From the IMG/VR virus record IMGVR_UViG_2645728091_000014, positions 1-11,289 of that record: a stretch of 11,289 bases of DNA; one strand, given 5' to 3'. The notes below the pieces were generated by a model. The model saw only the letters and a list, made by a program, of their open reading frames with translations. It was not told the origin of the DNA and did not search any database. The stretch's first letter is position 1. Every line of letters starts with the position of its first letter. This DNA is from a virus (Duplodnaviria; Heunggongvirae; Uroviricota; Caudoviricetes). Below, piece by piece: positions 1 to 11,289 of the stretch. Both the position numbers and the translations under genes were made by a program.

Positions 1-249
1 ATGCGCACACAGGTTGTATTGCAAAAATGGGGTAATAGCATTGCCCTTCGACTAACGGGAAACCTTAAAACCGTTCCGGGTTTTTCAGTGGGTGATATCG
101 TCAACGTTGAAATTAGTGAAAAGGGGCTTTTTGTAGAAAAGCCTGCACGCCGTCGCCTGAGTGAAGCCGAATTACTCGCCGGGATAACGCCAGTTACAGC
201 GCACGCGGACGAAATTGCCCCCCCATTCAATGAGGAGGTTGATTACTGA
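1..249 (+). CDS. MazE/PemI-family antitoxin (SpoVT/AbrB-type)
   Basis: 82-aa ORF starting with ATG at base 1. N-terminal K-W-G-N-S-x-A-x-R motif is typical of MazE/PemI/ChpS antitoxins. Stop TGA (247-249) overlaps the ATG of the downstream toxin gene (TGATG). Confidence 0.8.
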   Translation: MRTQVVLQKWGNSIALRLTGNLKTVPGFSVGDIVNVEISEKGLFVEKPARRRLSEAELLAGITPVTAHADEIAPPFNEEVDY

Positions 250-593
250 TGTTTGTACCTAAGCGTGGTGATATTTGCTGGCTGGATTTTGAGCCGCAGA
301 AAGGAAAAGAGATCGGAAAGTATCGCCCGGCACTCATACTGTCCCATGAGCAATATAACCGACTCACCGGGCTTGTCATATGCTGCCCCATAAGTACGAG
401 CATACGAAATGCTCCCACAGAAGTTCCGGTAACAAATCTGGACGCCCCCAACGTTGTAGCAACCACACTCATTCAAACCCTTGACTGGCGTCAGCGGAAA
501 GCGCGCTTAATCACAGAGGCAGAAGATGGGGTATTTAATGATGTGCTTGAAAGAGTCATTACCCTGATTGGCGGAGAGCATCTGCTTAAGTAA
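249..593 (+). CDS. MazF/PemK-family mRNA interferase toxin
   Basis: 114-aa ORF with the family-typical N-terminus (P-x-R-G-D-I-x-W-L-D-F-E-P-x-x-G-x-E-x-G-x-x-R-P-A-L-I-L-S), comparable to MazF/ChpBK/PemK. Start overlaps the antitoxin stop. Confidence 0.85.
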   Translation: MFVPKRGDICWLDFEPQKGKEIGKYRPALILSHEQYNRLTGLVICCPISTSIRNAPTEVPVTNLDAPNVVATTLIQTLDWRQRKARLITEAEDGVFNDVLERVITLIGGEHLLK

Positions 594-597
594 AAGG

Positions 598-615
598 AGG
601 GCTGAGAAGCCCTCA
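598..615. terminator. GC hairpin between convergent genes (possible bidirectional terminator)
   Basis: GAGGGCT (598-604), loop GAGA, AGCCCTC (609-615), lying between the toxin stop and the stop of the minus-strand 423-aa ORF. The T-tract is weak on both strands. Confidence 0.35.
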
Positions 616-636: not shown

Positions 637-1908
637 CTATTCTTTCCAGTCAATCCCATCCAGTAAGCACCCTGCTTCATATTGCCCCACCACCCAGTCA
701 AGGTTACAGGACTCATAGAACGCGAGGCGATTATACTGAGGCTCGTTTTTTACCAGGCCACGAACGGAACCACGCTGCCAGTACAGACACAGATTGGCAA
801 GAGGTGTGATCAATACAGCATTGTCCGGGAAAAATGGAACGGTCACAGCCGGGAGATTCCCCAGAACAGGATTTTTAATGATTTCCTCGTTAAGCAAAAT
901 TTCCTGATTCATCTGCGATGGATCAAGACGGTTTATCAAAGGCCATTGCTTACGGACCAGCGTATTGTGACTGCATACGGCCACAATGCCTTCCTGCCAC
1001 TGTTCATCAATCATGGATTGCCAGGCATCCAGAACGAGCGCATCTATCGTATGGTGTGTACCGCGTGTATTACTTTTCGGTGATGAAACAGAAAGGCCGC
1101 TGATAACCCTTCCCGCCGCTTCATTTCGAAACTTCTGCAACCAGCCCACGCCGCAATCATCACGCCCCGGATATGTTCCGGGATCTGATGTATCGGCATA
1201 GTGCGTACCGTTAAAACCAATCTGAATCAAATCCAGCCATTTCCGGCGTTCAAAAGCAGCCCGTGCGCTTCCTTCAAGACCGTTTGCGGATGCGTGAGCA
1301 TCAACATTGTCGTAGTTCAGCGCAAAATCAAAATTAACCTGCTCGCAGCGGTAGCCCCTTGAAACCAGTGAATGCGCCTGTAGTGGCGAACGGCGCGCGT
1401 GAGACGGTGATGTGCGTGCCAGCGGCCCCGAAGCGTCTACCAGCACAACCCGACCTGATATATCCGTAACAGGCACGGGAGTTATTTCAGCAAGGAAATT
1501 TGCCTGCCATCCACTGGCAAGCGTTGCACTCTGGCGGGGAACAGGCTCAACTTCTGATGAATAGCGCGCAGTGTCATCGGAAAAGTGCAAGTCCTTCGGA
1601 TGCTTTCCGGTTATCGACTCGATAGCGAGATTGAAAGCTATCTGAGACTGTTGATTTCGTTGTGACACAACAGAACCAGCAGTGCGATTATAACGCTCAA
1701 TGCCGTTGTTATTGCCCTCACCGTTTGCAGAATGCAGGGTGTGAAGCTCGAGTTCGCGCTCCAGTTTTTGATATTCATTGTCCAGGGCGCGACGGGTTTC
1801 ATCGCTTATGCCTGCTGTATTTGCTTTCAGGCGATTCCGGGACATTGATCCCCTGAGTCGGCTCACTATATCAGCGACGTGCAAATGTGGAATGTTCAGA
1901 CCGCCCAT
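637..1908 (-). CDS. hypothetical protein ORF2 (423 aa), function unknown
   Basis: Long minus-strand ORF. Preferred start is the ATG at 1908-1906, which overlaps the TAA stop of ORF1 (minus-strand TAATG) and is preceded by GGGGGTGG. The track's 470-aa version starts at 2049 and would overlap ORF1 by 141 nt. No Walker A, CxxC or other motif recognised by eye. Confidence 0.7.
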   Translation of the reverse strand: MGGLNIPHLHVADIVSRLRGSMSRNRLKANTAGISDETRRALDNEYQKLERELELHTLHSANGEGNNNGIERYNRTAGSVVSQRNQQSQIAFNLAIESITGKHPKDLHFSDDTARYSSEVEPVPRQSATLASGWQANFLAEITPVPVTDISGRVVLVDASGPLARTSPSHARRSPLQAHSLVSRGYRCEQVNFDFALNYDNVDAHASANGLEGSARAAFERRKWLDLIQIGFNGTHYADTSDPGTYPGRDDCGVGWLQKFRNEAAGRVISGLSVSSPKSNTRGTHHTIDALVLDAWQSMIDEQWQEGIVAVCSHNTLVRKQWPLINRLDPSQMNQEILLNEEIIKNPVLGNLPAVTVPFFPDNAVLITPLANLCLYWQRGSVRGLVKNEPQYNRLAFYESCNLDWVVGQYEAGCLLDGIDWKE

Positions 1909-2618
1909 TACTGCCACCCCCGGCAGAGTTCTCTGCCCTCCGCAAGGTCGCGCATTTTTTCTGAATTCTGTCGCGCTGCGCTCCATTGTACAGGTGAAGG
2001 GGCGCTCCTGATTGCGCAGCTTACTGAATCCGGGAGTTTCTCCGGGCAATAACGCAGCGGGCTGGAGGTGTCGCTTTCGGTATCGTTAATCCGGCCGCGA
2101 ATCATCCCGACACTTTCAGCAGTATCTGCCGCTTTCAGTGTTTCGCATATTTTCTTTTCTGCGTTATACAGCGGCTGGCCAAGCAGCTCACATAAACCAC
2201 GAATCAATAACAGAACAGGGGTCAGCTCGTTAATCAGTTCGGGAAGTGCTTTTGCAAATATCTCTGCCCGCAACTTATTATCAATACTTTCGTAAGCACA
2301 ACCAGCCTCTGCCGCGTTATAACGACACTCCAGTAGCCTGATGCGCGCCTCATCATGCAGCACCCGCAGACGCTCAAGATTTTCTCGCGCCACACCCGCC
2401 TGAATGGATAATTTCGCGGAGGCTTCCGTTTTTACTCCCAGCGCAGACAGGATTGAGTTCTGCCAGTCACGATCGAGAGACTCCAGTTCCCCTTTCGTCT
2501 GTTCGATAGTCGCTTCCAGATTGGTGACTAATGATTCCTGTTCACTGAGTTTTGCCCTGGCAGTATCAAACCGTGCTTTACATACCTGATGTTCGGCGCT
2601 TGCCTGAGTTATATCCAT
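1908..2618 (-). CDS. hypothetical protein ORF1 (236 aa), predicted helical; possibly Psu-like
   Basis: ATG at 2618-2616 preceded by AGGAG with a 6-nt spacer. N-terminal half is rich in heptad-like charged/Leu segments. Weak resemblance to my recollection of P4 Psu (N-terminal FDT, central A-L-x-P-E-L...E-L-T), unverified. Confidence 0.7.
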   Translation of the reverse strand: MDITQASAEHQVCKARFDTARAKLSEQESLVTNLEATIEQTKGELESLDRDWQNSILSALGVKTEASAKLSIQAGVARENLERLRVLHDEARIRLLECRYNAAEAGCAYESIDNKLRAEIFAKALPELINELTPVLLLIRGLCELLGQPLYNAEKKICETLKAADTAESVGMIRGRINDTESDTSSPLRYCPEKLPDSVSCAIRSAPSPVQWSAARQNSEKMRDLAEGRELCRGWQ

Positions 2619-2627
2619 TATTTGCTC

Positions 2628-2728
2628 CTGTAATACATTTTTTACTTACGCCGATTTTTTCCATATTGCGTAATACATTCCAGCCGATTTTGTTCTCGTA
2701 ATACGCTCACAATACTGTTGTATTACGC
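2628..2728. promoter_or_regulatory. divergent control region with four GTAWTAC heptamers
   Basis: GTAATAC at 2630-2636, 2670-2676 and 2698-2704; inverted GTATTAC at 2720-2726. Lies between the starts of ORF1 (minus) and the RHH gene (plus). The ORF1 ribosome-binding site abuts the first copy. Confidence 0.45.
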
Positions 2729-2782
2729 TTTCTTATATCGCGGGTGTTAAATCCCGGCATAAACAATCAGGGAGGCAACACG

Positions 2783-3016
2783 ATGAAAAAACAAAAGAAA
2801 ATGCGATGCGTATTACGCTGTATTCGTATCCCGCACGAAATCGACCATAAAATAAATCAGATGTGTGAGGACAGAGAGATGAACTACTCCCAGTGCGTCA
2901 GAATGTTTATCAGTCAGGGAATTAAGGCCGGGGAAACGCAGGAAGAAGACCGTGACGGGCGCAATGTGGCGGGGGATGTGTGGGCCTGGGCAAATGACCA
3001 GAACCACACGACGTAA
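2783..3016 (+). CDS. putative ribbon-helix-helix (Arc/CopG-like) DNA-binding protein
   Basis: 77-aa ORF from ATG 2783 preceded by GGGAGG with a 7-nt spacer (the track's 2744 start is a GTG without an RBS). Residues VLRCIRIP then two helices (EIDHKINQMCEDREM, NYSQCVRMFISQG) fit the beta-strand/helix/helix pattern of Arc/MetJ/CopG repressors. Confidence 0.55.
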   Translation: MKKQKKMRCVLRCIRIPHEIDHKINQMCEDREMNYSQCVRMFISQGIKAGETQEEDRDGRNVAGDVWAWANDQNHTT

Positions 3017-3289: not shown

Positions 3290-3610
3290 TCTTCCGCCGC
3301 CTCCTCTGGCTGTATCAAATAAACCCGCAGCAGTCGCCGCGTATTACGCACGGGCGCACCGTTCTCATGCTCACTCGTCACATTCCCCGTATCAGTTCTC
3401 TCTTGCCGTAAGAACGGCTCTGGCTGGCGATAAAACTAACCCGGTCGGGCATTCCCGCAGCCTTTAGCGAAAATGTCATTTACCCCCTGAAACGCGTGCT
3501 GTTCCCCCGTCACCTGCGCGCGAAAAACTCACCGTTTTTTGTGCACGCACGAAATCGCCCTCCGGGCGCGCCAGTACTGGGCCGGATGGGCAAAAAGTTA
3601 CTCTAAAAAA

Positions 3611-3637
3611 TTGTGCAAATTTGTGCACTTTTGTGCA
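3611..3637. repeat. three direct TTGTGCA repeats at exact 10-bp phasing
   Basis: TTGTGCA at 3611-3617, 3621-3627 and 3631-3637; a fourth copy at 3539-3545. Two copies extend to the palindrome GTGCAC. Confidence 0.6.
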
Positions 3638-3862
3638 GATGAACAATAGCGTCAAAAAGAGTGCTTTTGAGAGATTTTTTATGGCAACTGCGCCGCGTGT
3701 ATTACGTTTTTTACCATCCCCGCCGTGCATGTACATACTTCATTTTCTGCCAAACAACAGGGCAACTCCCCGTGACTGACAGCCCCAAAAAATCAATGAT
3801 TAATGTTGCATTTTTGTTAGAGATTAGACCAGTTGTTTTGGGGCTCTGCCTCATAATCCGGT

Positions 3863-4179
3863 GGGGGGTGCGCAAAGCGGTTACAACGGTTACAACAGTT
3901 AAAAACACAACTTAACAGTATGATTTTAATGGATATTGTTTGTAACCGCTTTGCGGTTACACTGCGGTTACAACGGTTACAGGTTTCAAAAAGCACTTTA
4001 TTATCAATCAATTAAAAACTTAACCTGTAACCGCCTGTAACCTAACAAAACGGTTACATGTAACCGCGTTGTAACCGCTTTTGTAACTCATCCGACCAGT
4101 TATAATATATTGATATATAATACAAAAATAAGTAATTCTAAATTTGTAACCGTTGTAACCGCTTTGCGCATCCCCCCCC
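3863..4179. repeat. iteron array bounded by a perfect 27-bp inverted repeat; putative ori/crr-like or att-arm region
   Basis: 3869-3895 (TGCGCAAAGCGGTTACAACGGTTACAA) is the exact reverse complement of 4144-4170, extended by G6 (3863-3868) / C8 (4172-4179). At least 13 GGTTAC/GTAACC hexamers lie between, as direct repeats (3878-3895, 3953-3981, 4024-4043) and palindromes (3941-3961, 4051-4066). An AT-rich stretch sits at 4100-4143 and an IHF-like WATCAANNNNTTR match at 4002-4014. Confidence 0.6.
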
Positions 4180-4366
4180 AAACTTTAGCGCGACCCTTTA
4201 AAATGTTAATTAAACTCACTTACTCTGTCTCATTCTCATTAACTCTCTGTGATTAAAATGTATCTCGTCATTATTTGACTCTTTCTGATAATCAGGGGGC
4301 AAAAAATTGATGGCGGCACCACTGCAATATGGCCACCATTGCATTGCCGTTACCGTTGGTTCTGGC

Positions 4367-4425: not shown

Positions 4426-5430
4426 TTACTCTGCTGGCTCTTTTTCTTCGATGATCACTATGTTGGCTACCGGGTTAAATCTCATGGCATCTGCCAGATA
4501 ATCCGGTGCAAAATGTGCGTATGCCATAGTCTGCTGAATTGTCGCATGCCCAAGGATTTTTTGTAGCGCAAGAATGTTGCCACCGTTCATCACAAAGTGA
4601 CTGGCGAATGTATGCCGCAATACATGCGCAGCCTGCCCCCTCGGTAAATCGGGTTTTATTTTTTTTAATGCCCGGCAAAACTCTCTATACTTCACATCAA
4701 ACAGTCGCCCGGTTTCTTTTGTTTTTACGGCATCGCATATTTCCTGCGACACAGGCACCGTTCTTTTTCTACCGTTTTTGGTTTCCAGAAACGTTATTCT
4801 ATTATGAACTATTTGCTCTCCATGCAATCTGCTGGCCTCACTCCAGCGGGCTCCGGTACATAGACACAAGAGCGCAACCCTTCGTTGATCTCCATTCAGC
4901 CCGTCAAGCAACAATGTGACCTCGTTTTTTGATAAAAAGGCCATTTCCCGCTGCTTTACATAAAGAACAGGAATACCACGAACCGGATGCTCTGCATCCC
5001 ACAAACCGATCTTTTTCAGGGCTGTAAACATCCCCGATAATCTGTTCATGTATCTGTTTGCTGAGGACGGCTTTAATCCTTCCGCAATTTTCTGCGATCG
5101 CCATGCAATGATTTTTAATTTGTCGAGTTCTACCGCAAACATGTCAGCTCCAAGCTCATTAATAATTTTGCCAAGCTGCTGTTTATCCGTGTTTGCCTTT
5201 CGCCTGTGCTGACCGTGATAAACCCACCACAATTCCAGTAAATCGCTAAGCGTTCTCCGGTCGCGATAGCCCTGTATAAACTCGCGCTTTTCGGCGTTCG
5301 CTATGATGTACCGTTCAGTTGCTGTAGCTATCGATTTTTTGTCAAATATTCTTCTGATGCGCTTCCCTTTACGTCCGCATGGCCTGATATCGAGCAGCCA
5401 CCGCCCATCATGCATCTTTCTGATCGGCAT
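4426..5430 (-). CDS. int: tyrosine recombinase / phage integrase (P2-type)
   Basis: C-terminal H-x-L-R-H-T...L-G-H...Y catalytic motifs. N-terminus (DGRWLLDIRPCGRKGKRIRRIFDKKS) resembles P2/186-type integrases. Preferred ATG at 5430 lies 2 nt after the primase stop with AAGGAGG upstream; the alternative ATG at 5466 adds 12 aa. Confidence 0.9.
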   Translation of the reverse strand: MPIRKMHDGRWLLDIRPCGRKGKRIRRIFDKKSIATATERYIIANAEKREFIQGYRDRRTLSDLLELWWVYHGQHRRKANTDKQQLGKIINELGADMFAVELDKLKIIAWRSQKIAEGLKPSSANRYMNRLSGMFTALKKIGLWDAEHPVRGIPVLYVKQREMAFLSKNEVTLLLDGLNGDQRRVALLCLCTGARWSEASRLHGEQIVHNRITFLETKNGRKRTVPVSQEICDAVKTKETGRLFDVKYREFCRALKKIKPDLPRGQAAHVLRHTFASHFVMNGGNILALQKILGHATIQQTMAYAHFAPDYLADAMRFNPVANIVIIEEKEPAE

Positions 5431-5432
5431 GT

Positions 5433-8102
5433 TTAACGCCCCTCCTTGTAACTGAATATCCGGCATTTCAGTACTTCCGGCTCTCTGGCCTCGGCGACCC
5501 CTCTTCCGGCGTTTGCCTGTCTGGAGACCTCACTACGAATGGTTTTGCGGCCTGTCAAAGGTCGGGAACGTCCTGCTCCGAGCAACTCAATCATTTCGCG
5601 GTCAGTGCGGATCTCCACGCGGTGAATAGCGGCAGCCTGTGCCAGTTGCGGAATACTGATAGCAATCCCCTCGCGGCATCCCTTGCCGTAGTGGTTTACA
5701 CCGTATTTTGTTATGCCGTCCAGGAAGTCGAACGCCTCCCAGAACTCCATCACTTCCGGTAAATCAGCCGCCGCCGCTTTAACCTGCGCTGTTGCCATTT
5801 GTTCCAGTTCCAGACATGTGGCATCAAGCCATTCATCTGGGATATCAATAACGCATTTCAGCGCCCTGACCAGCGCGATAAGTTGTGCGTGATTTTTGGC
5901 GATGCGGGGATGGCGAATATTTTCGCATCCGCAAAGGCGTTCCGTTTCAACTGGAGATACTTCCAGGAACGTTTGCATAATCGCCCGTTCCTGACTTGCC
6001 GCCCGGTGAATAAACCCAGATACCTTCTCGACGGGGTAAAGTTCCAGCCGTCTCGCCGCCAGGCGGGTATCAGGTGAATGGCGTTTTTTATCGGTGTATA
6101 TGCGTATCAGGCGCTCAATAATTGCCGGAGAGGCGTTTACCCGCGCATTCTGCGCAATCACGATAGCGCCCTTAAAATCCGGATCATAGGTGTTGTTATT
6201 GTTGGCCTTAACACCACGAACGCCGATACCACCGCCGTTATAGAGACTTTTCAGGTTATCGAAGTCAAACGCACCTCTTTTTTGCGCATTGTCTCCCCGG
6301 TCCGCTTCAATCAGAACAACAGGTAATCCGGCGACCTGTCCAAAGGTGCGCTTCCAGCCCGCCTCTGATCCTTTGGTTGGATCAACGCCTTCATAGTTGT
6401 CACGACCGCACAGCCGCCAGCAAAAATCAATCAGTGTTGATTTACCCGTTCCGGGCTCCCCGGTGACTTCAAGGAAGGGGAAGGATTCTTCTTTATCCCG
6501 GATTTGTTCGCTGAACAGGGAGCCCAACCAGAAAGCCAGGGTAATAATTCCCTTTTCACCAAAAGCCAGCCAGAGATCTTCCACCCAGGACGCTGTAAAT
6601 TCATCCGGTTTTTTGTAGTTAATCTGTAATGTGGGTTTTTCGCTTAATGGTTTTGCGTTTATGCCATCAATTTCAAAATAATCCTCATCATTGATTTCAT
6701 AAGTTTTACCCTTATAAACGGCAATATCATTAAACAGCCATGCCCCAATTCCCTTGTTGTATCCGATAAAATCCTGACCAATAACCTCTTTTATTGCGGG
6801 AAGGTCATTTTTTATTAATGCGTCAAGCTGCGTAGTCGTTCCGGTATAAATACCGCCTTTTGCCACGTGCAGCAGGCGTTTTTTAAATTCAGATGAGGAT
6901 GTTAATTGTCCTGATGTAAAGGTGTTTTTCACCGTAGCACCATCCGGGAATGTAACGCGGAAGTAATACCATGCTTCATCCGTGTCATTGTTTCGAATGT
7001 AATAAAGCGGCACTGGGTTACAGTTTGCGATTTCTTTTACAGCACCGGATTCCTTAAGTGCAATTTTGCGCGCTTCGTCTTCGTCAACATTTCGCTCATT
7101 AATGACACGCTCAACAGCCTTCATATGGCGCTCAATGTCCAGCTTGAACCAGAAAACACGGTTATCAAAAGTAAAATGAAATTCCTTCCGCTCACGAAAG
7201 GAAAACATTATTAGTGCCTTATCTCTTGGAGATTTCGCCAGCAATAAATCACCGTAATAACGGTATCTTTTCACATCATGGCCACGCAGCTTTCCGGCGA
7301 TGTGTAAATCATTCCAGTCGCGTTTATTGCTGTTTTTACCCGGTAACGCCGCCGCCGTTCTCCAGCCGTCTTCGGCGCTGCGTTCTGCATGTTTTTTCGC
7401 GTAACGTTCACCCGCACGCCCGTTATCCAGGGCCCACACAATAACCGGACGGGGATTATCTCCGCACAGCTTCGCCAGCTCTTCCAGCGCCTTATCAGGG
7501 TAGTTCACGGCAGACATGACAGAAACGGCCGCAATGCCATTCTGGTTAAGGCTGATGGCATCAAAGATGCCCTCACAAATCCAGATTTCTTTGGCCTTGC
7601 TTAAATCTGCTCCCGGATAAGCCCACCACAACCCCTTGTAGCTGCCGGAAAAATTCGCCTTGCGCGCGAAGCGTCCCGGTCGGTCTATGATGCGCTCCCA
7701 CCACACGCCGTCAGCCAGCGTAAAACGCACAGTAGCGGCCTGTTCGCCGTTTTCCTTGTCCTGGTATCGCTCCTGAGTAAATGCGCCCTTCAGTGGCCCC
7801 ACAGCAATATTGCGCGCTTCCTGAAGATAAGCTGCCGCCGCTGCATATGGCTCATCTTTCGTGCTGATATAACGATCTGACCATGATGAAAACACATCCG
7901 GGTAAAGTTCTTTGGTCAGCAGGTCTATACCGCATTTATTTTCGCGCCCACAGTGTACGATGTACGGCCTTTCAAGGCTGGTAAACAACTCTTTCTTTCC
8001 ACATTGCGGACAAACACCATACCGGAGGTAGTTATTTTCTTCTTTGAAGTTGTAATCACGGATAAGACGGTTAATAATCTCTTTTCTGATGTCAGATTTC
8101 AT
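5433..8102 (-). CDS. alpha-like DNA primase-helicase (zinc-binding N-terminus, TOPRIM primase, SF3/D5-type helicase)
   Basis: N-terminal C-P-x-C...H-C...C zinc motif, TOPRIM-like E-G-I-F-D-A and L-D-N-G-R-A-G, and Walker A G-E-P-G-T-G-K-S-T. Preferred ATG at 8102 with GGAG 8 nt upstream; the track start at 8126 is a GTG inside a hairpin. Confidence 0.9.
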   Translation of the reverse strand: MKSDIRKEIINRLIRDYNFKEENNYLRYGVCPQCGKKELFTSLERPYIVHCGRENKCGIDLLTKELYPDVFSSWSDRYISTKDEPYAAAAAYLQEARNIAVGPLKGAFTQERYQDKENGEQAATVRFTLADGVWWERIIDRPGRFARKANFSGSYKGLWWAYPGADLSKAKEIWICEGIFDAISLNQNGIAAVSVMSAVNYPDKALEELAKLCGDNPRPVIVWALDNGRAGERYAKKHAERSAEDGWRTAAALPGKNSNKRDWNDLHIAGKLRGHDVKRYRYYGDLLLAKSPRDKALIMFSFRERKEFHFTFDNRVFWFKLDIERHMKAVERVINERNVDEDEARKIALKESGAVKEIANCNPVPLYYIRNNDTDEAWYYFRVTFPDGATVKNTFTSGQLTSSSEFKKRLLHVAKGGIYTGTTTQLDALIKNDLPAIKEVIGQDFIGYNKGIGAWLFNDIAVYKGKTYEINDEDYFEIDGINAKPLSEKPTLQINYKKPDEFTASWVEDLWLAFGEKGIITLAFWLGSLFSEQIRDKEESFPFLEVTGEPGTGKSTLIDFCWRLCGRDNYEGVDPTKGSEAGWKRTFGQVAGLPVVLIEADRGDNAQKRGAFDFDNLKSLYNGGGIGVRGVKANNNNTYDPDFKGAIVIAQNARVNASPAIIERLIRIYTDKKRHSPDTRLAARRLELYPVEKVSGFIHRAASQERAIMQTFLEVSPVETERLCGCENIRHPRIAKNHAQLIALVRALKCVIDIPDEWLDATCLELEQMATAQVKAAAADLPEVMEFWEAFDFLDGITKYGVNHYGKGCREGIAISIPQLAQAAAIHRVEIRTDREMIELLGAGRSRPLTGRKTIRSEVSRQANAGRGVAEAREPEVLKCRIFSYKEGR

Positions 8103-8115
8103 ATATAAAACTCCA

Positions 8116-8145
8116 CCCCACTGCACCTTTTGCAGTGGGGTTTTT
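8116..8145 (+). terminator. perfect 10-bp GC hairpin plus T-run in the primase 5' leader
   Basis: CCCCACTGCA (8116-8125), loop CCTTT, TGCAGTGGGG (8131-8140), then TTTTT (8141-8145) on the plus strand. On the minus strand the stem is followed by UGGAGUUUUAUAUAUG, which contains the primase RBS and start. Confidence 0.45.
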
Positions 8146-8150
8146 ATTAA

Positions 8151-8450
8151 TTACTCGTTACTTATTGCTTTGGCAATCCCGGCGGTTTCGGCACTATGCC
8201 ATGAAAAAATTCCGCCAGAAGTATGCATTCCTGACTTAATCGCTCGTAATTCCCGATAAAGAATGTTAGTTAATGATTCCATTTCATTAATTTGCACTGG
8301 CATTCTCTCACTGGTATTAATTTCACCTGTCAATGCTGAAAGGAGCGCAATAACATTTATTACATCTTCAAGATTCTCAATGGAATCTTCCGTGAAAAAA
8401 CCAGCGTATTCTTTTTTGTATATATTGCGGATATTCTGATTTTCAGACAT
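8151..8450 (-). CDS. hypothetical protein (99 aa), AT-rich
   Basis: ATG at 8450 preceded by GGGGAG with a 5-nt spacer. Visibly more AT-rich than the flanking primase and small-ORF block. Confidence 0.5.
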   Translation of the reverse strand: MSENQNIRNIYKKEYAGFFTEDSIENLEDVINVIALLSALTGEINTSERMPVQINEMESLTNILYRELRAIKSGMHTSGGIFSWHSAETAGIAKAISNE

Positions 8451-8517
8451 AAAAACTCCCCGACCCGTTAAGATCGAAATATAAATTTAATTCAGTTATC
8501 AGTTGGTAATTCGGGAA

Positions 8518-8736
8518 TCAGGCGGAAAGCTGCGTCACCTTCAACGCTTTGAAATGTGTCATTCCCAGCTCTTCCAGCCCTTCGGCTGCGCGGCGTATGG
8601 CTTCGCCCGGTCCCGTTCCGTATACCGTTGCATGTGCATGTTTGGTTAACCCACGTTTATTAACGGCATAACCCAACACAAAGAAACGTTTTTCACCACT
8701 GCCATTATTTTTACGGGATATTGAACGGCTTTTCAT
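8518..8736 (-). CDS. hypothetical small protein (72 aa)
   Basis: ATG 8736-8734 overlaps the TGA stop of the upstream ORF (ATGA), indicating translational coupling. Confidence 0.5.
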   Translation of the reverse strand: MKSRSISRKNNGSGEKRFFVLGYAVNKRGLTKHAHATVYGTGPGEAIRRAAEGLEELGMTHFKALKVTQLSA

Positions 8737-8921
8737 TTCTTCACCTTTAGCACTGATGCTGTGAGTTCTTCTTCTGGCAATTGATATTTCGGCGCAATTT
8801 CTTCCGTATACCTGATAGCATCCCTTGCCGCTTTTCCTTTTGATTTATATTTACGTATCGTGTAGAAGTTTTCTTCCTCTCCTGTTACCACATTACGCAA
8901 TTTAATATGAATCTCGTACAT
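8733..8921 (-). CDS. hypothetical small protein (62 aa)
   Basis: Preferred ATG at 8921 is preceded by GGAGGGG and sits 2 nt after the TAA stop of the upstream ORF. The track version starts 10 codons earlier at 8951. Confidence 0.5.
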   Translation of the reverse strand: MYEIHIKLRNVVTGEEENFYTIRKYKSKGKAARDAIRYTEEIAPKYQLPEEELTASVLKVKK

Positions 8922-8923
8922 CG

Positions 8924-9106
8924 TTACCCCTCCATGATTTTTACTGCGCATTTGTGGGTTAATCGCCCCTGTTTGTCATTGCGGGAATATGCCATACGAC
9001 AGGCATCACGCCATGCATCGTCATAAGTCGGATATTCCCAGGAATGAATCATCTGGCGAACGTCGCCGTTCTGGTAGTTAATCAGGGTGATAAGGAGCTT
9101 AAACAT
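8924..9106 (-). CDS. hypothetical small protein (60 aa)
   Basis: Preferred ATG at 9106 is preceded by GGGAGG about 7 nt upstream. The track's 86-aa version (start 9184) has no RBS. Confidence 0.5.
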   Translation of the reverse strand: MFKLLITLINYQNGDVRQMIHSWEYPTYDDAWRDACRMAYSRNDKQGRLTHKCAVKIMEG

Positions 9107-9272
9107 GGCACGCCTCCCGGACACGGATACGGGCAACAAAGACCAGACGGGATGCCGGAAGCATGGCGCGCGCTTCGCGCTCACTGGCAGCGGTAACGGT
9201 ATGAAGGCGAATATTTTTACCGTGGCACTGCATAAAGCGCCAGATAAAATCAGGGCGTGTTGATATAGCCAT
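9099..9272 (-). CDS. hypothetical small protein (57 aa), possibly Icd-like
   Basis: ATG at 9272 preceded by AAGGAG. The track's 175-aa extension to 9626 is low-complexity and lacks an RBS. The E-R-E-A-R ... L-V-F-V-A-R-I motif pattern resembles my recollection of Icd-like proteins in P4-like prophages, unverified. Confidence 0.4.
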   Translation of the reverse strand: MAISTRPDFIWRFMQCHGKNIRLHTVTAASEREARAMLPASRLVFVARIRVREACHV

Positions 9273-9629
9273 TTTGGCGGCTCCTTGATTAAGTTTACGG
9301 AGTCTCGCCAGCACGCTGCTAAACATGGTGGCGGGACGTAACAGGGTTAGCAGACTGGCAATCAAGGAACCAGCGAGCGCAAAGGCTCCCCCATTACGCC
9401 CCGCCATAATACGGGGTAGGGTGGAATTACGGGCACAAAAAAACCGCATTACGGAAATATAGCGGCTACCCGCTTGATTGTTCAGGCTGCTAAACCCGGC
9501 ACCCGCTTTATGAGGTGCGGGCAAACGATACGCCATGACAAAAAAGCGAGTCAAGCAATATTGCAAATTATTTTTGCTCACTTGCGCTGAGTGATTGATT
9601 TTAAAGAGTAAAAAAGCCATAATCATTTC

Positions 9630-10202: not shown

Positions 10203-10239
10203 AGTATTAAAGGTCTTATTAAGATGCTTGCTGGTCTTA
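10203..10239. repeat. two 15-bp direct repeats 21 bp apart in the alpA upstream region
   Basis: GGTCTTATTAAGATG (10203-10217) and GGTCTTACTGAGATG (10224-10238), 13/15 identical, overlapping the 3' end of the 350-aa ORF. Confidence 0.35.
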
Positions 10240-11289
10240 CTGAGATGATGCTTTAATCCATCTTGATATAGTACTTTTATCAAAGCGCATATTGAGTCCT
10301 GCCTCTCTTGCTTCCGCGGTCAATATATCAGCAAGTTTTACCGGATTGTTTTCGAGTTCTTTATAATGAATAACAAGCATCGCACGAAAAAAATCCTTCA
10401 TTGTTTTAGATAATCGTTCTATATTGTTTTTATTGGTGCATATGTCTTTCTCTCCATCCTCAGAACTTAATATATTGTTACCCGCACACAAATATAAAGT
10501 ATCTGCCAATGGATTAACATAATCTTTTCTTAACTCGCTATTGGAGTTTGTAGCATTTTGTATTTTTAAAAAATCATTCTTTAAGATATATAAATCACCA
10601 ATATCAAAAGAAACATCCTCAGTAACAATTAGTCCTATATGTATATCAACGTCAGAAGCAATTATAATATTGCTATTAATTATTCGGTTGGCTTTAAACT
10701 TCTTATTAAAATCATAGTTGGCAAAAAAACTTCCCCCCAAAGCGAAAATGCCGCCTATTTCAACAAAATACTTATGGTATTTTTCTTGAATACCTTTAAA
10801 TACTGGTGGCACAACTGCCACAGCTCTTTCATCCGTTGCTATTCGATATACACTATATATGTGATAATTTTCCCCATAATATACCCCCCTGTTATAATAA
10901 TTTAACAAAGCAAATGCAGTATCAATTGCTATGTCACCAAATTTGGGCGTTACATATGAATGACTTAGAGATTCGCACATTGAATCAAATATAATTCTCG
11001 ACTTGGTTTTTATATAATTAAAACCATGGTGTTCTGCCGCCCTTTCTGAAATGGCATCAAGATCAGATAACCGTGATTTACACGGTTCTGAATCCATAAA
11101 CTTACGCAGACAATCGAAATTAACCACATCTTTTTCATCTGGGATATTTAATACTCCATATGCAGATTCAATTTTTATACAAATACGAATGCAGCCTGTC
11201 ACAGCCCAATGAATAAGATCGTCAATATCGCAGTCTAATAACTTTGCCGCGCGCTCAATAGGATAGTAATCTCTTAGTGGTAACGTCAT
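10237..11289 (-). CDS. hypothetical protein (350 aa), AT-rich, HTH-like segments at both termini
   Basis: ATG is the last three bases of the window, so the true start may lie upstream. N-terminal Y-P-I-E-R-A-A-K-L-L-D-C-D-I-D-D-L-I-H-W and C-terminal A-D-I-L-T-A-E-A-R-E-A-G-L-N-M-R-F-D-K-S-T-I-S-R-W-I-K look like helix-turn-helix elements. A weak G-G-S ... S-D-V-D-I stretch was noted. Confidence 0.65.
   Translation of the reverse strand: MTLPLRDYYPIERAAKLLDCDIDDLIHWAVTGCIRICIKIESAYGVLNIPDEKDVVNFDCLRKFMDSEPCKSRLSDLDAISERAAEHHGFNYIKTKSRIIFDSMCESLSHSYVTPKFGDIAIDTAFALLNYYNRGVYYGENYHIYSVYRIATDERAVAVVPPVFKGIQEKYHKYFVEIGGIFALGGSFFANYDFNKKFKANRIINSNIIIASDVDIHIGLIVTEDVSFDIGDLYILKNDFLKIQNATNSNSELRKDYVNPLADTLYLCAGNNILSSEDGEKDICTNKNNIERLSKTMKDFFRAMLVIHYKELENNPVKLADILTAEAREAGLNMRFDKSTISRWIKASSQ

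Follow-up and report, generated by a model that had tools for sequence, protein, structure and literature searches.

A Sid-like protein paired with a diverged P2-family capsid homolog: a candidate capsid-morphogenesis operon in a P4-like satellite integrated at hpt

The DNA analysed here, a stretch of 11,289 nucleotides (nt) from the IMG/VR virus record IMGVR_UViG_2645728091_000014 (Caudoviricetes) that is referred to as the window at its full length, is most of a ~13-kb P4-like satellite integrated at hpt. Two adjacent open reading frames (ORFs) in it, ORF1 and ORF2, seem to form the capsid-morphogenesis operon of this satellite. The identity of ORF1, a putative external capsid scaffold, as a remote homolog of P4 Sid is supported by its predicted structure and by profile comparison, and the identity of ORF2 as a diverged homolog of the P2-family major capsid protein is well supported by sequence comparison. 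From these identities we infer an assembly mechanism in which the two proteins would act as a matched pair of scaffold and capsid protein, allowing the satellite to build small heads of its own; a probability of roughly 0.58 is given to this reading. The pair and the hairpin that follows it are located as follows.

1908..2618, minus strand: ORF1, 236 amino acids (aa)
637..1908, minus strand: ORF2, 423 aa, with its ATG at 1908..1906
597..614, minus strand: terminator-like hairpin, GAGGGCTTCTCAGCCCTC followed by a T-rich run, immediately 3' of the ORF2 stop codon

The stop codon of ORF1 (TAA, 1910..1908) and the start codon of ORF2 have one base in common within TAATG (1910..1906), an overlap already pointed out in a previous sequence-only reading of this DNA and confirmed here in the sequence; the coding sequences called in RefSeq, in identical copies of the region, are identical to ORF1 and ORF2. 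That reading derived from the overlap an obligate co-expression of both genes. However, the junction between the homologous genes of relatives measures -8, -8, 0, +17, +19, and +19 nt and, thus, to speak of "obligate translational coupling" goes too far: what stands of the claim is that a satellite carries both genes as a co-expressed pair, and the conserved feature is the close operon linkage, not the 1-nt overlap. Both ORFs are intact in diverged copies of the island, with ratios of nonsynonymous to synonymous substitution rates (dN/dS) of 0.13-0.34, and are under purifying selection. These properties, together with the conservation of the pair across genera, indicate that ORF1 and ORF2 are genuine genes and not chance ORFs. 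No nucleotide similarity was found between the DNA of the pair and phages.

ORF2, in which the sequence-only reading recognised no assignable motif, is a clear capsid homolog by Pfam, PHROG, phmmer, and Foldseek, and is labelled as such in RefSeq. Three parts of the protein are distinguished below.

637..1653, minus strand: ORF2 core (aa 86-423), homologous to the P2-family major capsid protein and diverged from it, HK97 fold
1654..1908, minus strand: ORF2 N-terminal extension (aa 1-85), predicted helix-turn-helix hairpin (aa 11-61) plus disordered linker, which phage capsids lack
1042..1107, minus strand: equivalent of the gpN "sir loop" (ORF2 aa 268-289), by alignment to gpN

ORF2 matches the Pfam family PF05125 (Phage_cap_P2) with E=3.1e-73 and 247.2 bits (cutoff 27), over positions 26-327 of the 327 in the profile, and PHROG_70 with E=2.6e-77. 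Residues 86-419 align over the entire T protein of phage 186 with 36% identity, and residues 119-419 align with residues 32-340 of P2 gpN (chain 7jw1_A of PDB 7JW1; phmmer E=1.6e-56), an alignment that begins exactly at the maturation cleavage point of gpN (residue 32); the position of ORF2 that corresponds to gpN residue 31/32 is near residue ~118. For the AlphaFold model of ORF2, with a predicted local distance difference test score (pLDDT) of 80, the closest fold is that of P2 gpN (Foldseek against 7jw1_B, E=1.6e-26 and a template modelling score (TM) of 0.75), and the top matches are chains A-D of 7jw1 and the capsid protein of phiRSA1, with TM values of 0.70-0.78. Moreover, the fold of the family is complete in ORF2, and its invariant core residues are retained.

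Nevertheless, ORF2 differs from an ordinary phage capsid gene. Its product is 35-40% identical to helper-type capsids and reaches 133.6 bits against the NCBI equivalog TIGR01551, failing the cutoff of 219.65 that denotes the same function as phage capsids, whereas the T protein of 186 (312.6 bits) and the P88 capsid (256.6 bits) pass it. The satellite capsids, proteins of 359-497 aa from Enterobacterales, are monophyletic and stand apart from the phage capsids with a bootstrap support of 100/100; the diversity within this clade equals that of the sampled phage set, and full-length ORFs and synteny are kept across five genera. All satellite capsids carry 71-210 residues ahead of the FLxxI motif, as against 48-54 in phages. 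In the AlphaFold model of ORF2, the helices of the extension (residues 11-29 and 36-61) have pLDDT values of 84-93 and residues 63-83 fall below 50. A motif of the extension, MxFxxRIKxxIxRN...ENxKLExEL, is kept in most of the clade, and the linker between the hairpin and the capsid core is hypervariable. In two E. coli relatives of ORF2, P0019 and P0021, the linker has grown by low-complexity Ser/Ala/Thr/Pro-rich repeats, reaching up to 210 residues before FLxxI. An origin of the extension as a captured C-terminus of gpO was considered and rejected after null results of BLASTP and hhalign with gpO-family proteins. The single tblastn piece that covers both scaffold and capsid in a Klebsiella phage is obtained because the two genes lie in one frame.

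The sir loop of gpN is the binding site of Sid (PMC7552001). Its counterpart in the satellite clade starts with a clade-wide conserved V-x-(S/D/G)-G-(L/F)-S-V, mostly VxSGLSV, and four of the five sir positions of P2 gpN are changed in ORF2 (M184I, D206T, Y207H, and L221M). The loop has a length of 22 aa in the window, compared with 26 aa in P88 and with 29 aa (7 fewer than in P2 gpN) in 186-type capsids. A deletion in the sir loop was rejected as a hallmark of the clade, since the loops of the clade, at 20-26 aa, overlap in length with that of P88-type phages (26 aa), and so was the loss of the C-terminal tail, as several phages have short tails too.

The AlphaFold model of ORF1 is confident (pLDDT 93.3; predicted TM (pTM) 0.78) and all-helical, as the sequence-only reading had anticipated; in it, short helices come after a long hairpin of two helices (residues 3-58 and 65-146). 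In a Foldseek search of the PDB (350,542 chains), P4 Sid (7jw1_E) came first and Psu third, although with a weak statistic (E=0.058); the best structural matches of ORF1 and ORF2 are therewith both in 7JW1, the P4 procapsid. An hhalign comparison of profiles built from 15 members of the ORF1 family and 18 of the Sid family yielded a probability of 76% (E=2.3e-5) for a collinear alignment of 99-216 columns. The sequence similarity to Sid is remote, at ~19% identity. A plain HMMER profile search against the Sid sequence returned only E=7.2, helical hairpins giving weak statistics. W52 and G61 of ORF1, which align with W59 and G67 of Sid, are the most conserved residues, and the invariant S208-P209-x-Q211 of ORF1 aligns with T219-P220-x-Q222 of Sid, whose residues 219-224 touch the sir loop of gpN (PMC7552001). 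The [ST]-P-x-Q motif at the position of Sid residues 219-222 is the only hint that ORF1 may bind capsid hexamers and redirect assembly to a triangulation number of 4 (T=4). The predicted structure of ORF1 also has the architecture of the Sid fold, which in Sid comprises, within ~240 aa, a two-helix stem of ~100 Å, a region for dimerisation, a linker, and a helix at the C-terminus that binds the capsid.

ORF1 matched no Pfam or PHROG profile, nor any of the 50,697 phage records searched with tblastn. Its family is very small, as an exhaustive search with HMMER found only 17 relatives among 1.84 billion representatives. The possibility that ORF1 is a gpO was rejected, with an hhalign probability of 0.2% against the gpO homolog of 186 and no significant BLASTP match.

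Seven further islands, from two other E. coli lineages, Salmonella, two Klebsiella variants, Erwinia psidii, and Pectobacterium, were compared with the window. The sequence-only reading had placed the pair in an accessory region between a toxin-antitoxin module and an Ogr-type activator; both neighbours were found, and the features that surround the pair are the following.

1..593, plus strand: AbrB/MazE-like gene and PemK/MazF toxin gene
2783..3016, plus strand: divergent regulator of ribbon-helix-helix (RHH)-like pattern, recognised by eye, 77 aa
3067..3249, minus strand: Ogr/Delta-type zinc-finger late activator, 60 aa (PF04606, E=3.7e-11), 450 bp upstream of ORF1
3472..3638, no strand assigned: cos-like non-coding segment, candidate packaging site, shared with P88-like Peduoviridae

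The gene order is the same in 7/7 islands: alpha primase, variable genes, cos-like segment, Ogr/Delta gene, small RHH-like ORF, ORF1 homolog, long capsid homolog, variable genes, and island end. The first variable slot holds a second recombinase, HicAB, AIPR, DUF4238, or nothing, and the second, between the capsid gene and the island end, holds MazEF in the window and in Salmonella, uracil-DNA glycosylase (UDG) in Klebsiella, Hok in another E. coli lineage, and GmrSD together with a type I restriction-modification system in Erwinia. Thus, the flanking slots are the true accessory regions and ORF1-ORF2 is the conserved core of the element; the view of the pair as accessory cargo does not hold, as it is present in all seven relatives with variable cargo on both of its flanks. 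The sequence-only reading had also proposed asking whether ORF2 homologs always co-occur with ORF1, and this was so in all cases examined: each satellite-type capsid gene had a homolog of ORF1 (237-242 aa in the seven islands) upstream of it.

Across islands, the identities between pairs correlate tightly among ORF1, ORF2, and Ogr (r=0.93-0.97, Mantel p~6e-4), whereas those of the alpha primase are uncorrelated with this module (r~0.05). The morphogenesis module, which co-diverges as a whole while the primase does not, is therefore a single evolutionary unit that has moved among replication backbones. As for the primases themselves, that of the window (5433-8126, minus strand), compared with those of the relatives L004-L017, is 54% identical to the one from Pectobacterium, and both are ~20% identical to the others; such different primase types beside a co-diverging module point to modular recombination between the replication and morphogenesis halves of these elements.

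Upstream of ORF1, two further features could be involved in the control of the operon.

2691..2711, minus strand: candidate Ogr/Delta-type activator site, consisting of TGT-N12-AGA and then ACAAAA and situated 93 nt upstream of the ATG of ORF1
2630..2816, no strand assigned: operator-like cluster of GTATTAC/GTAATAC, with copies at 2630, 2670, 2698, 2720, and 2810

A T(G/C)T-N12-ACA element is present 89-122 nt upstream of 7/7 ORF1 homologs, exact in islands L008 and L015 and followed by ACAA except in L015. Its version in Klebsiella, Erwinia, and Pectobacterium, TCTGGCC-N5-CTTACAACAAAAGC, almost equals the site upstream of the scaffold-capsid operon of P88; the annotated B-protein site of the 186 promoter pV gives a comparable match at -96, and the P4 promoter Psid contains exact copies. 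In form and position, the element upstream of ORF1 corresponds to the activator sites in the late promoters of P2, 186, and P4, and it is a candidate promoter element as judged from its sequence.

The divergent RHH regulator proposed in the sequence-only reading corresponds to a 77-aa ORF that is kept in 7/7 islands and that follows in them the pattern R.(I/V)R(I/V)P.(E/P)LD..I...YS..V; the ORF and its RHH-like appearance by eye stand, and the profile support is limited to a sole, weak match to a VapB antitoxin. The repeated operator-like motifs noticed in the same reading are borne out by a strong over-representation of GTATTAC, with 11 copies in the window versus 1.02 expected, a count reached in 0/200 shuffles. 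In addition to the cluster, copies of GTATTAC/GTAATAC occur at 3013, 3157, and 3341; one copy abuts the Shine-Dalgarno sequence of ORF1, and the motif is found at matching positions in the Salmonella relative. These repeats are probably operators for the RHH-like protein.

The cos-like segment shares ~81% identity with a non-coding stretch that lies past the portal gene in 32 phage records, P88 and 500465-2 among them, which is where P2-type genomes have their cos. The segment occurs in ~1100 E. coli genomes, with the same place in the prophage of EC958, and is kept just upstream of the Ogr gene in 9/9 related loci; some strains, such as ETEC4070 (NZ_CP122676), have two copies of it. A cos of the P2/P4 type was also considered for the island and rejected, since neither the P4 cos junction nor the entire P4 sequence gave a match by blastn; the P88-type segment was found instead. 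A RefSeq "hypothetical protein" at 3476-3736 (minus strand) overlies the segment, has no family match, and is probably not a real gene. The cos-like segment together with the near-match of the activator site in some relatives makes P88-like phages the likely helpers of this satellite.

The following sequence of events is proposed. During the late development of a P88-like helper of the P2 family, the Ogr-type activator of either the satellite or the helper would fire the promoter upstream of ORF1. ORF2 subunits would then polymerise on complexes of the helper portal and scaffold-protease, while ORF1 dimers could bridge ORF2 hexamers and trimerise via their long stems, as Sid does on gpN. In this way, ORF1 would force the formation of a small shell, probably T=4, fit for a genome of ~13 kb. 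The helper protease may remove the N-terminal extension of ORF2, which would have acted as a built-in scaffold or propeptide, and the helper terminase would package the satellite through the shared cos, the particle being completed by helper tails. A satellite encoding a capsid that is recognised by its own scaffold would not need the Sid-binding loop of the helper and, therefore, would be insensitive to sir-type escape mutations. As regards its origin, it is possible, though somewhat short of probable, that a P4-like lineage internalised a helper capsid gene, and that scaffold and capsid protein have since co-evolved as a pair, the lineage building small heads of its own and needing the helper only for portal, protease, terminase, and tails. 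The role in helper manipulation suggested by the sequence-only reading can be counted right in the form of this predicted capsid hijack.

Several observations weigh against this proposal. The contact between ORF1 and ORF2 is conceived only by analogy with that between Sid and gpN, and their co-divergence could be due to linkage alone, because Ogr co-diverges too; the correlation could thus arise in the absence of a physical interaction between both proteins. The N-terminal extension of ORF2 varies widely and is nearly missing in P0027 and P0022, so that it may not be an essential scaffold, and no similarity to gpO scaffolds was found in it by BLASTP or by hhalign with three gpO-family proteins. 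Near ORF1 in the window, an exact TGT-N12-ACA was not found, the only version being one with one mismatch. Moreover, the assignment of the candidate cos rests on its position and conservation, and the strain carrying the window has no resident P88-like prophage.

Among the other explanations, the one that best survives, unlikely but deserving appreciable weight, is a mode of action like that of Ccm, in which ORF2 would co-assemble with the helper capsid protein, either as special hexamers bound by ORF1 or as poisoning subunits, and would redirect the size of the helper capsid and/or block helper heads, as Ccm does with phi12. Ccm provides a precedent, being a satellite capsid homolog, 23% identical to that of the helper, that is found in small capsids and needs the helper capsid protein (PMC6893505), and the 35-40% identity of ORF2 to helper-type capsids, as well as its failure at the equivalog cutoff, would fit a specialised shell protein. 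However, ORF2 keeps the whole fold and the invariant core residues and is always paired with a Sid-like scaffold, and no sequence feature separates mixed from pure shells.

It is improbable that ORF1 is a Psu-like protein, i.e., a capsid decoration protein and Rho antagonist, with ORF2 as a separate downstream gene, which is how the sequence-only reading had alternatively seen them, ORF2 being the first cargo gene after a divergent Psu. Sid and Psu are themselves homologous (PMC7552001) and the satellites with the ORF1-ORF2 pair have no separate psu gene. However, the Pfam profile of Psu (PF07455), which recovers P4 Psu itself at 1.3e-88, matched neither ORF1 nor five of its homologs at E<=10, and hhalign gave ORF1 a probability of 0.1% against Psu, compared with that of 76% against the Sid family. 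The length of ORF1 (236 aa) and its long stem also fit Sid (244 aa) and not Psu (190 aa). The Sid/Psu fold was rightly perceived, with profile and architecture pointing to Sid instead of Psu, and the place of ORF2 as a mere first cargo gene is at odds with its pairing with ORF1 in every island examined.

A function in anti-phage defence, either with the capsid homolog as a decoy or sensor or with the pair as an abortive-infection effector carried as satellite cargo, is very improbable, even though satellites carry defence hotspots (PMC9122126; 2026 bioRxiv preprint), the pair adjoins toxin-antitoxin genes, and any capsid-directed hijack would lower the yield of the helper too. The search of PADLOC-DB v2 gave no significant match, being null for ORF2 and returning for ORF1 only a weak JetC coiled-coil match (E=0.0015), so the anti-phage role entertained in the sequence-only reading finds no echo there. 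Moreover, the pair is invariant while the surrounding cargo turns over, which is the opposite of hotspot behaviour, and its wiring includes a cos-like site as well as a late-promoter element. That reading had itself regarded confident homology of both proteins to structural families as the outcome that would speak against a cargo operon, and this is essentially what was found. Finally, a remnant of the head operon of a decaying P2-like prophage, with no current function, is scarcely credible. ORF2 does derive from a phage capsid gene and other head genes are missing from the island, but both genes are intact with the low dN/dS given above, the clade keeps full-length ORFs and synteny in five genera while being as diverse as the sampled phage capsids, and ORF1 is not gpO-like.

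Regarding the element as a whole, an exact copy of the window is located between hpt and gcd in E. coli, and at least 80% of the window is present in 43 of 5426 complete genomes. The island is bounded by an imperfect 25-nt repeat of the 5' end of hpt, which appears to be its att site, and has a size of ~12.95 kb; no tRNA was found at its ends. A P4-type integrase (Arm-DNA-bind_3 plus Phage_integrase) lies directly past the right end of the window, which itself encodes AlpA, a Toprim primase, and Ogr_Delta according to Pfam. A C4/CI-type antisense RNA and isrK are found at 9324-9518 (minus strand), with 74.7 bits for C4 and 52.1 bits for isrK. Both RNAs are inside an "Icd-like" ORF (9099-9626); the locus resembles a P4-type CI immunity locus, and the protein call is possibly spurious in part or as a whole. 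An iteron array extends over 3860-4180, with ~16 copies of CGGTTACA in both orientations around an AT-rich core (4095-4140), and is flanked by 36-nt inverted repeats at 3860-3895 and 4144-4179; this region probably serves the alpha primase as its origin or crr. Portal, terminase, tail, and lysis genes were not found in the island, nor were a gpO scaffold-protease or head-tail adaptors; gpO, portal, and terminase genes are likewise missing from the seven related islands. In view of its ~12.95 kb, its AlpA, primase, and RNA content, and the lack of portal, terminase, and tail genes, the island is a P4-like satellite in size, replication, and immunity.

The P4-like core in SatelliteFinder comprises int, alpA, alpha, epsilon/Ash, sid, delta, and psu. 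Integrase, an AlpA-type regulator, alpha primase, and delta were found in this element; there is no psu gene and sid is represented only by its remote homolog ORF1. As for epsilon/Ash, neither an Ash nor a Derepression domain was detected in the window, and one or both occur in the relatives L004, L015, L016, and L017. With four of the seven components recognisable, the element would probably be missed by the published detection models, as judged from their description (PMC10085698), and current models probably miss such satellites in general because they require sid and psu.

Other genes of the window lie outside the morphogenesis module. A second tyrosine recombinase of 346 aa (4426-5466, minus strand; Int_N plus Phage_integrase) overlaps the end of the primase gene and sits in a variable slot, in an island that already has its P4-type integrase. 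Between AlpA and the integrase, a 350-aa ORF (10237-11289, minus strand) has no match in Pfam, PADLOC, or NCBIfam, with a counterpart of 353 aa at the same position in the E. coli island L006. Neither Pfam nor PHROG gave a match for four small ORFs at 8151-9184 (minus strand), which lie between the primase and the immunity region.

The redirection of capsid size by P4 Sid is a textbook case of molecular piracy, and according to the review literature Sid-like proteins are not known outside elements of the P4 type that act on helper capsid protein. If the proposed function of the pair is true, it would represent a new strategy in the arms race between helpers and satellites, in which independence from the Sid-binding loop of the helper would be an answer to sir-type escape. 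It would also suggest that a scaffold of the Sid type can function together with a capsid protein dedicated to it, the N-terminal hairpin of ORF2 being an internal scaffold, and would offer a natural and minimal system of two genes in which to study how the triangulation number is set by an external scaffold. In evolutionary terms, the element would be an intermediate between P4, which has no capsid gene, and the phage-inducible chromosomal islands that are capsid-forming (cfPICIs), which have a full head module. In addition, the module is a compact candidate for the engineering of small transducing particles.

Part of this picture is already known, i.e., the RefSeq annotation of the ORF2 family, the existence of satellite capsid homologs (Ccm, those of PmCI172 and EcCICFT073, and those of cfPICIs), and that of external scaffolds (Sid and TcaP). 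The review by Dokland states that phages have no obviously Sid-like proteins, and the authors of the Sid structure stated that the existence of the Sid/Psu fold outside P4 elements was not known (PMC7552001). No description was found in the searchable literature, whose coverage is incomplete and leaves the novelty provisional, of a P4-like lineage pairing a Sid homolog with a dedicated, diverged P2-family capsid, of such a pair in place of sid and psu, or of its wiring to a cos-like site and a late promoter of the P88 type.

The closest known system is the complex of P4 Sid and P2 gpN (PDB 7JW1; Kizziah, Rodenburg & Dokland 2020, PMC7552001). ORF1 resembles Sid in fold, size, hairpin stem, linker, and C-terminal helices, and shares with it the [ST]-P-x-Q motif at the capsid-contact position, and ORF2 has the same fold as gpN and belongs to its family. 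As in P4, the Sid-type gene is near an Ogr/Delta gene and a late-type promoter element. However, P4 obtains its capsid protein only from the helper, whereas this satellite encodes a diverged copy of its own; the gene order is sid-delta-psu in P4 and delta-RHH-sid-like-capsid here, with no psu; and the cos-like site and promoter of the window, unlike those of P2 or P4, resemble those of P88-like phages. A satellite external scaffold that forces small capsids is also known in TcaP of the phage-inducible chromosomal island-like element (PLE) of Vibrio cholerae (PMC10002752, PDB 8G1R), although TcaP is unrelated in sequence and acts on the coat protein of the helper, the PLE having no capsid gene.

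Satellite-encoded, diverged capsid homologs of the HK97 fold are likewise represented by Ccm of SaPIbov5 and by the capsid-like genes of PmCI172 and EcCICFT073 (PMC6893505), which are also implicated in the formation of satellite-sized heads. These satellites are phage-inducible chromosomal islands (PICIs) whose capsid homologs belong to another capsid family and have no Sid-like external scaffold as a partner, and Ccm depends on the helper capsid protein. Finally, cfPICIs (PMC10085698) have their own capsid protein and use helper tails, as the element described here would do. Their head module is, however, complete, comprising capsid, protease, portal, adaptors, and terminases, whereas that of the window element consists of capsid and scaffold only and is combined, unlike in cfPICIs, with an Ogr gene and with functions in replication and immunity that are of the P4 type.

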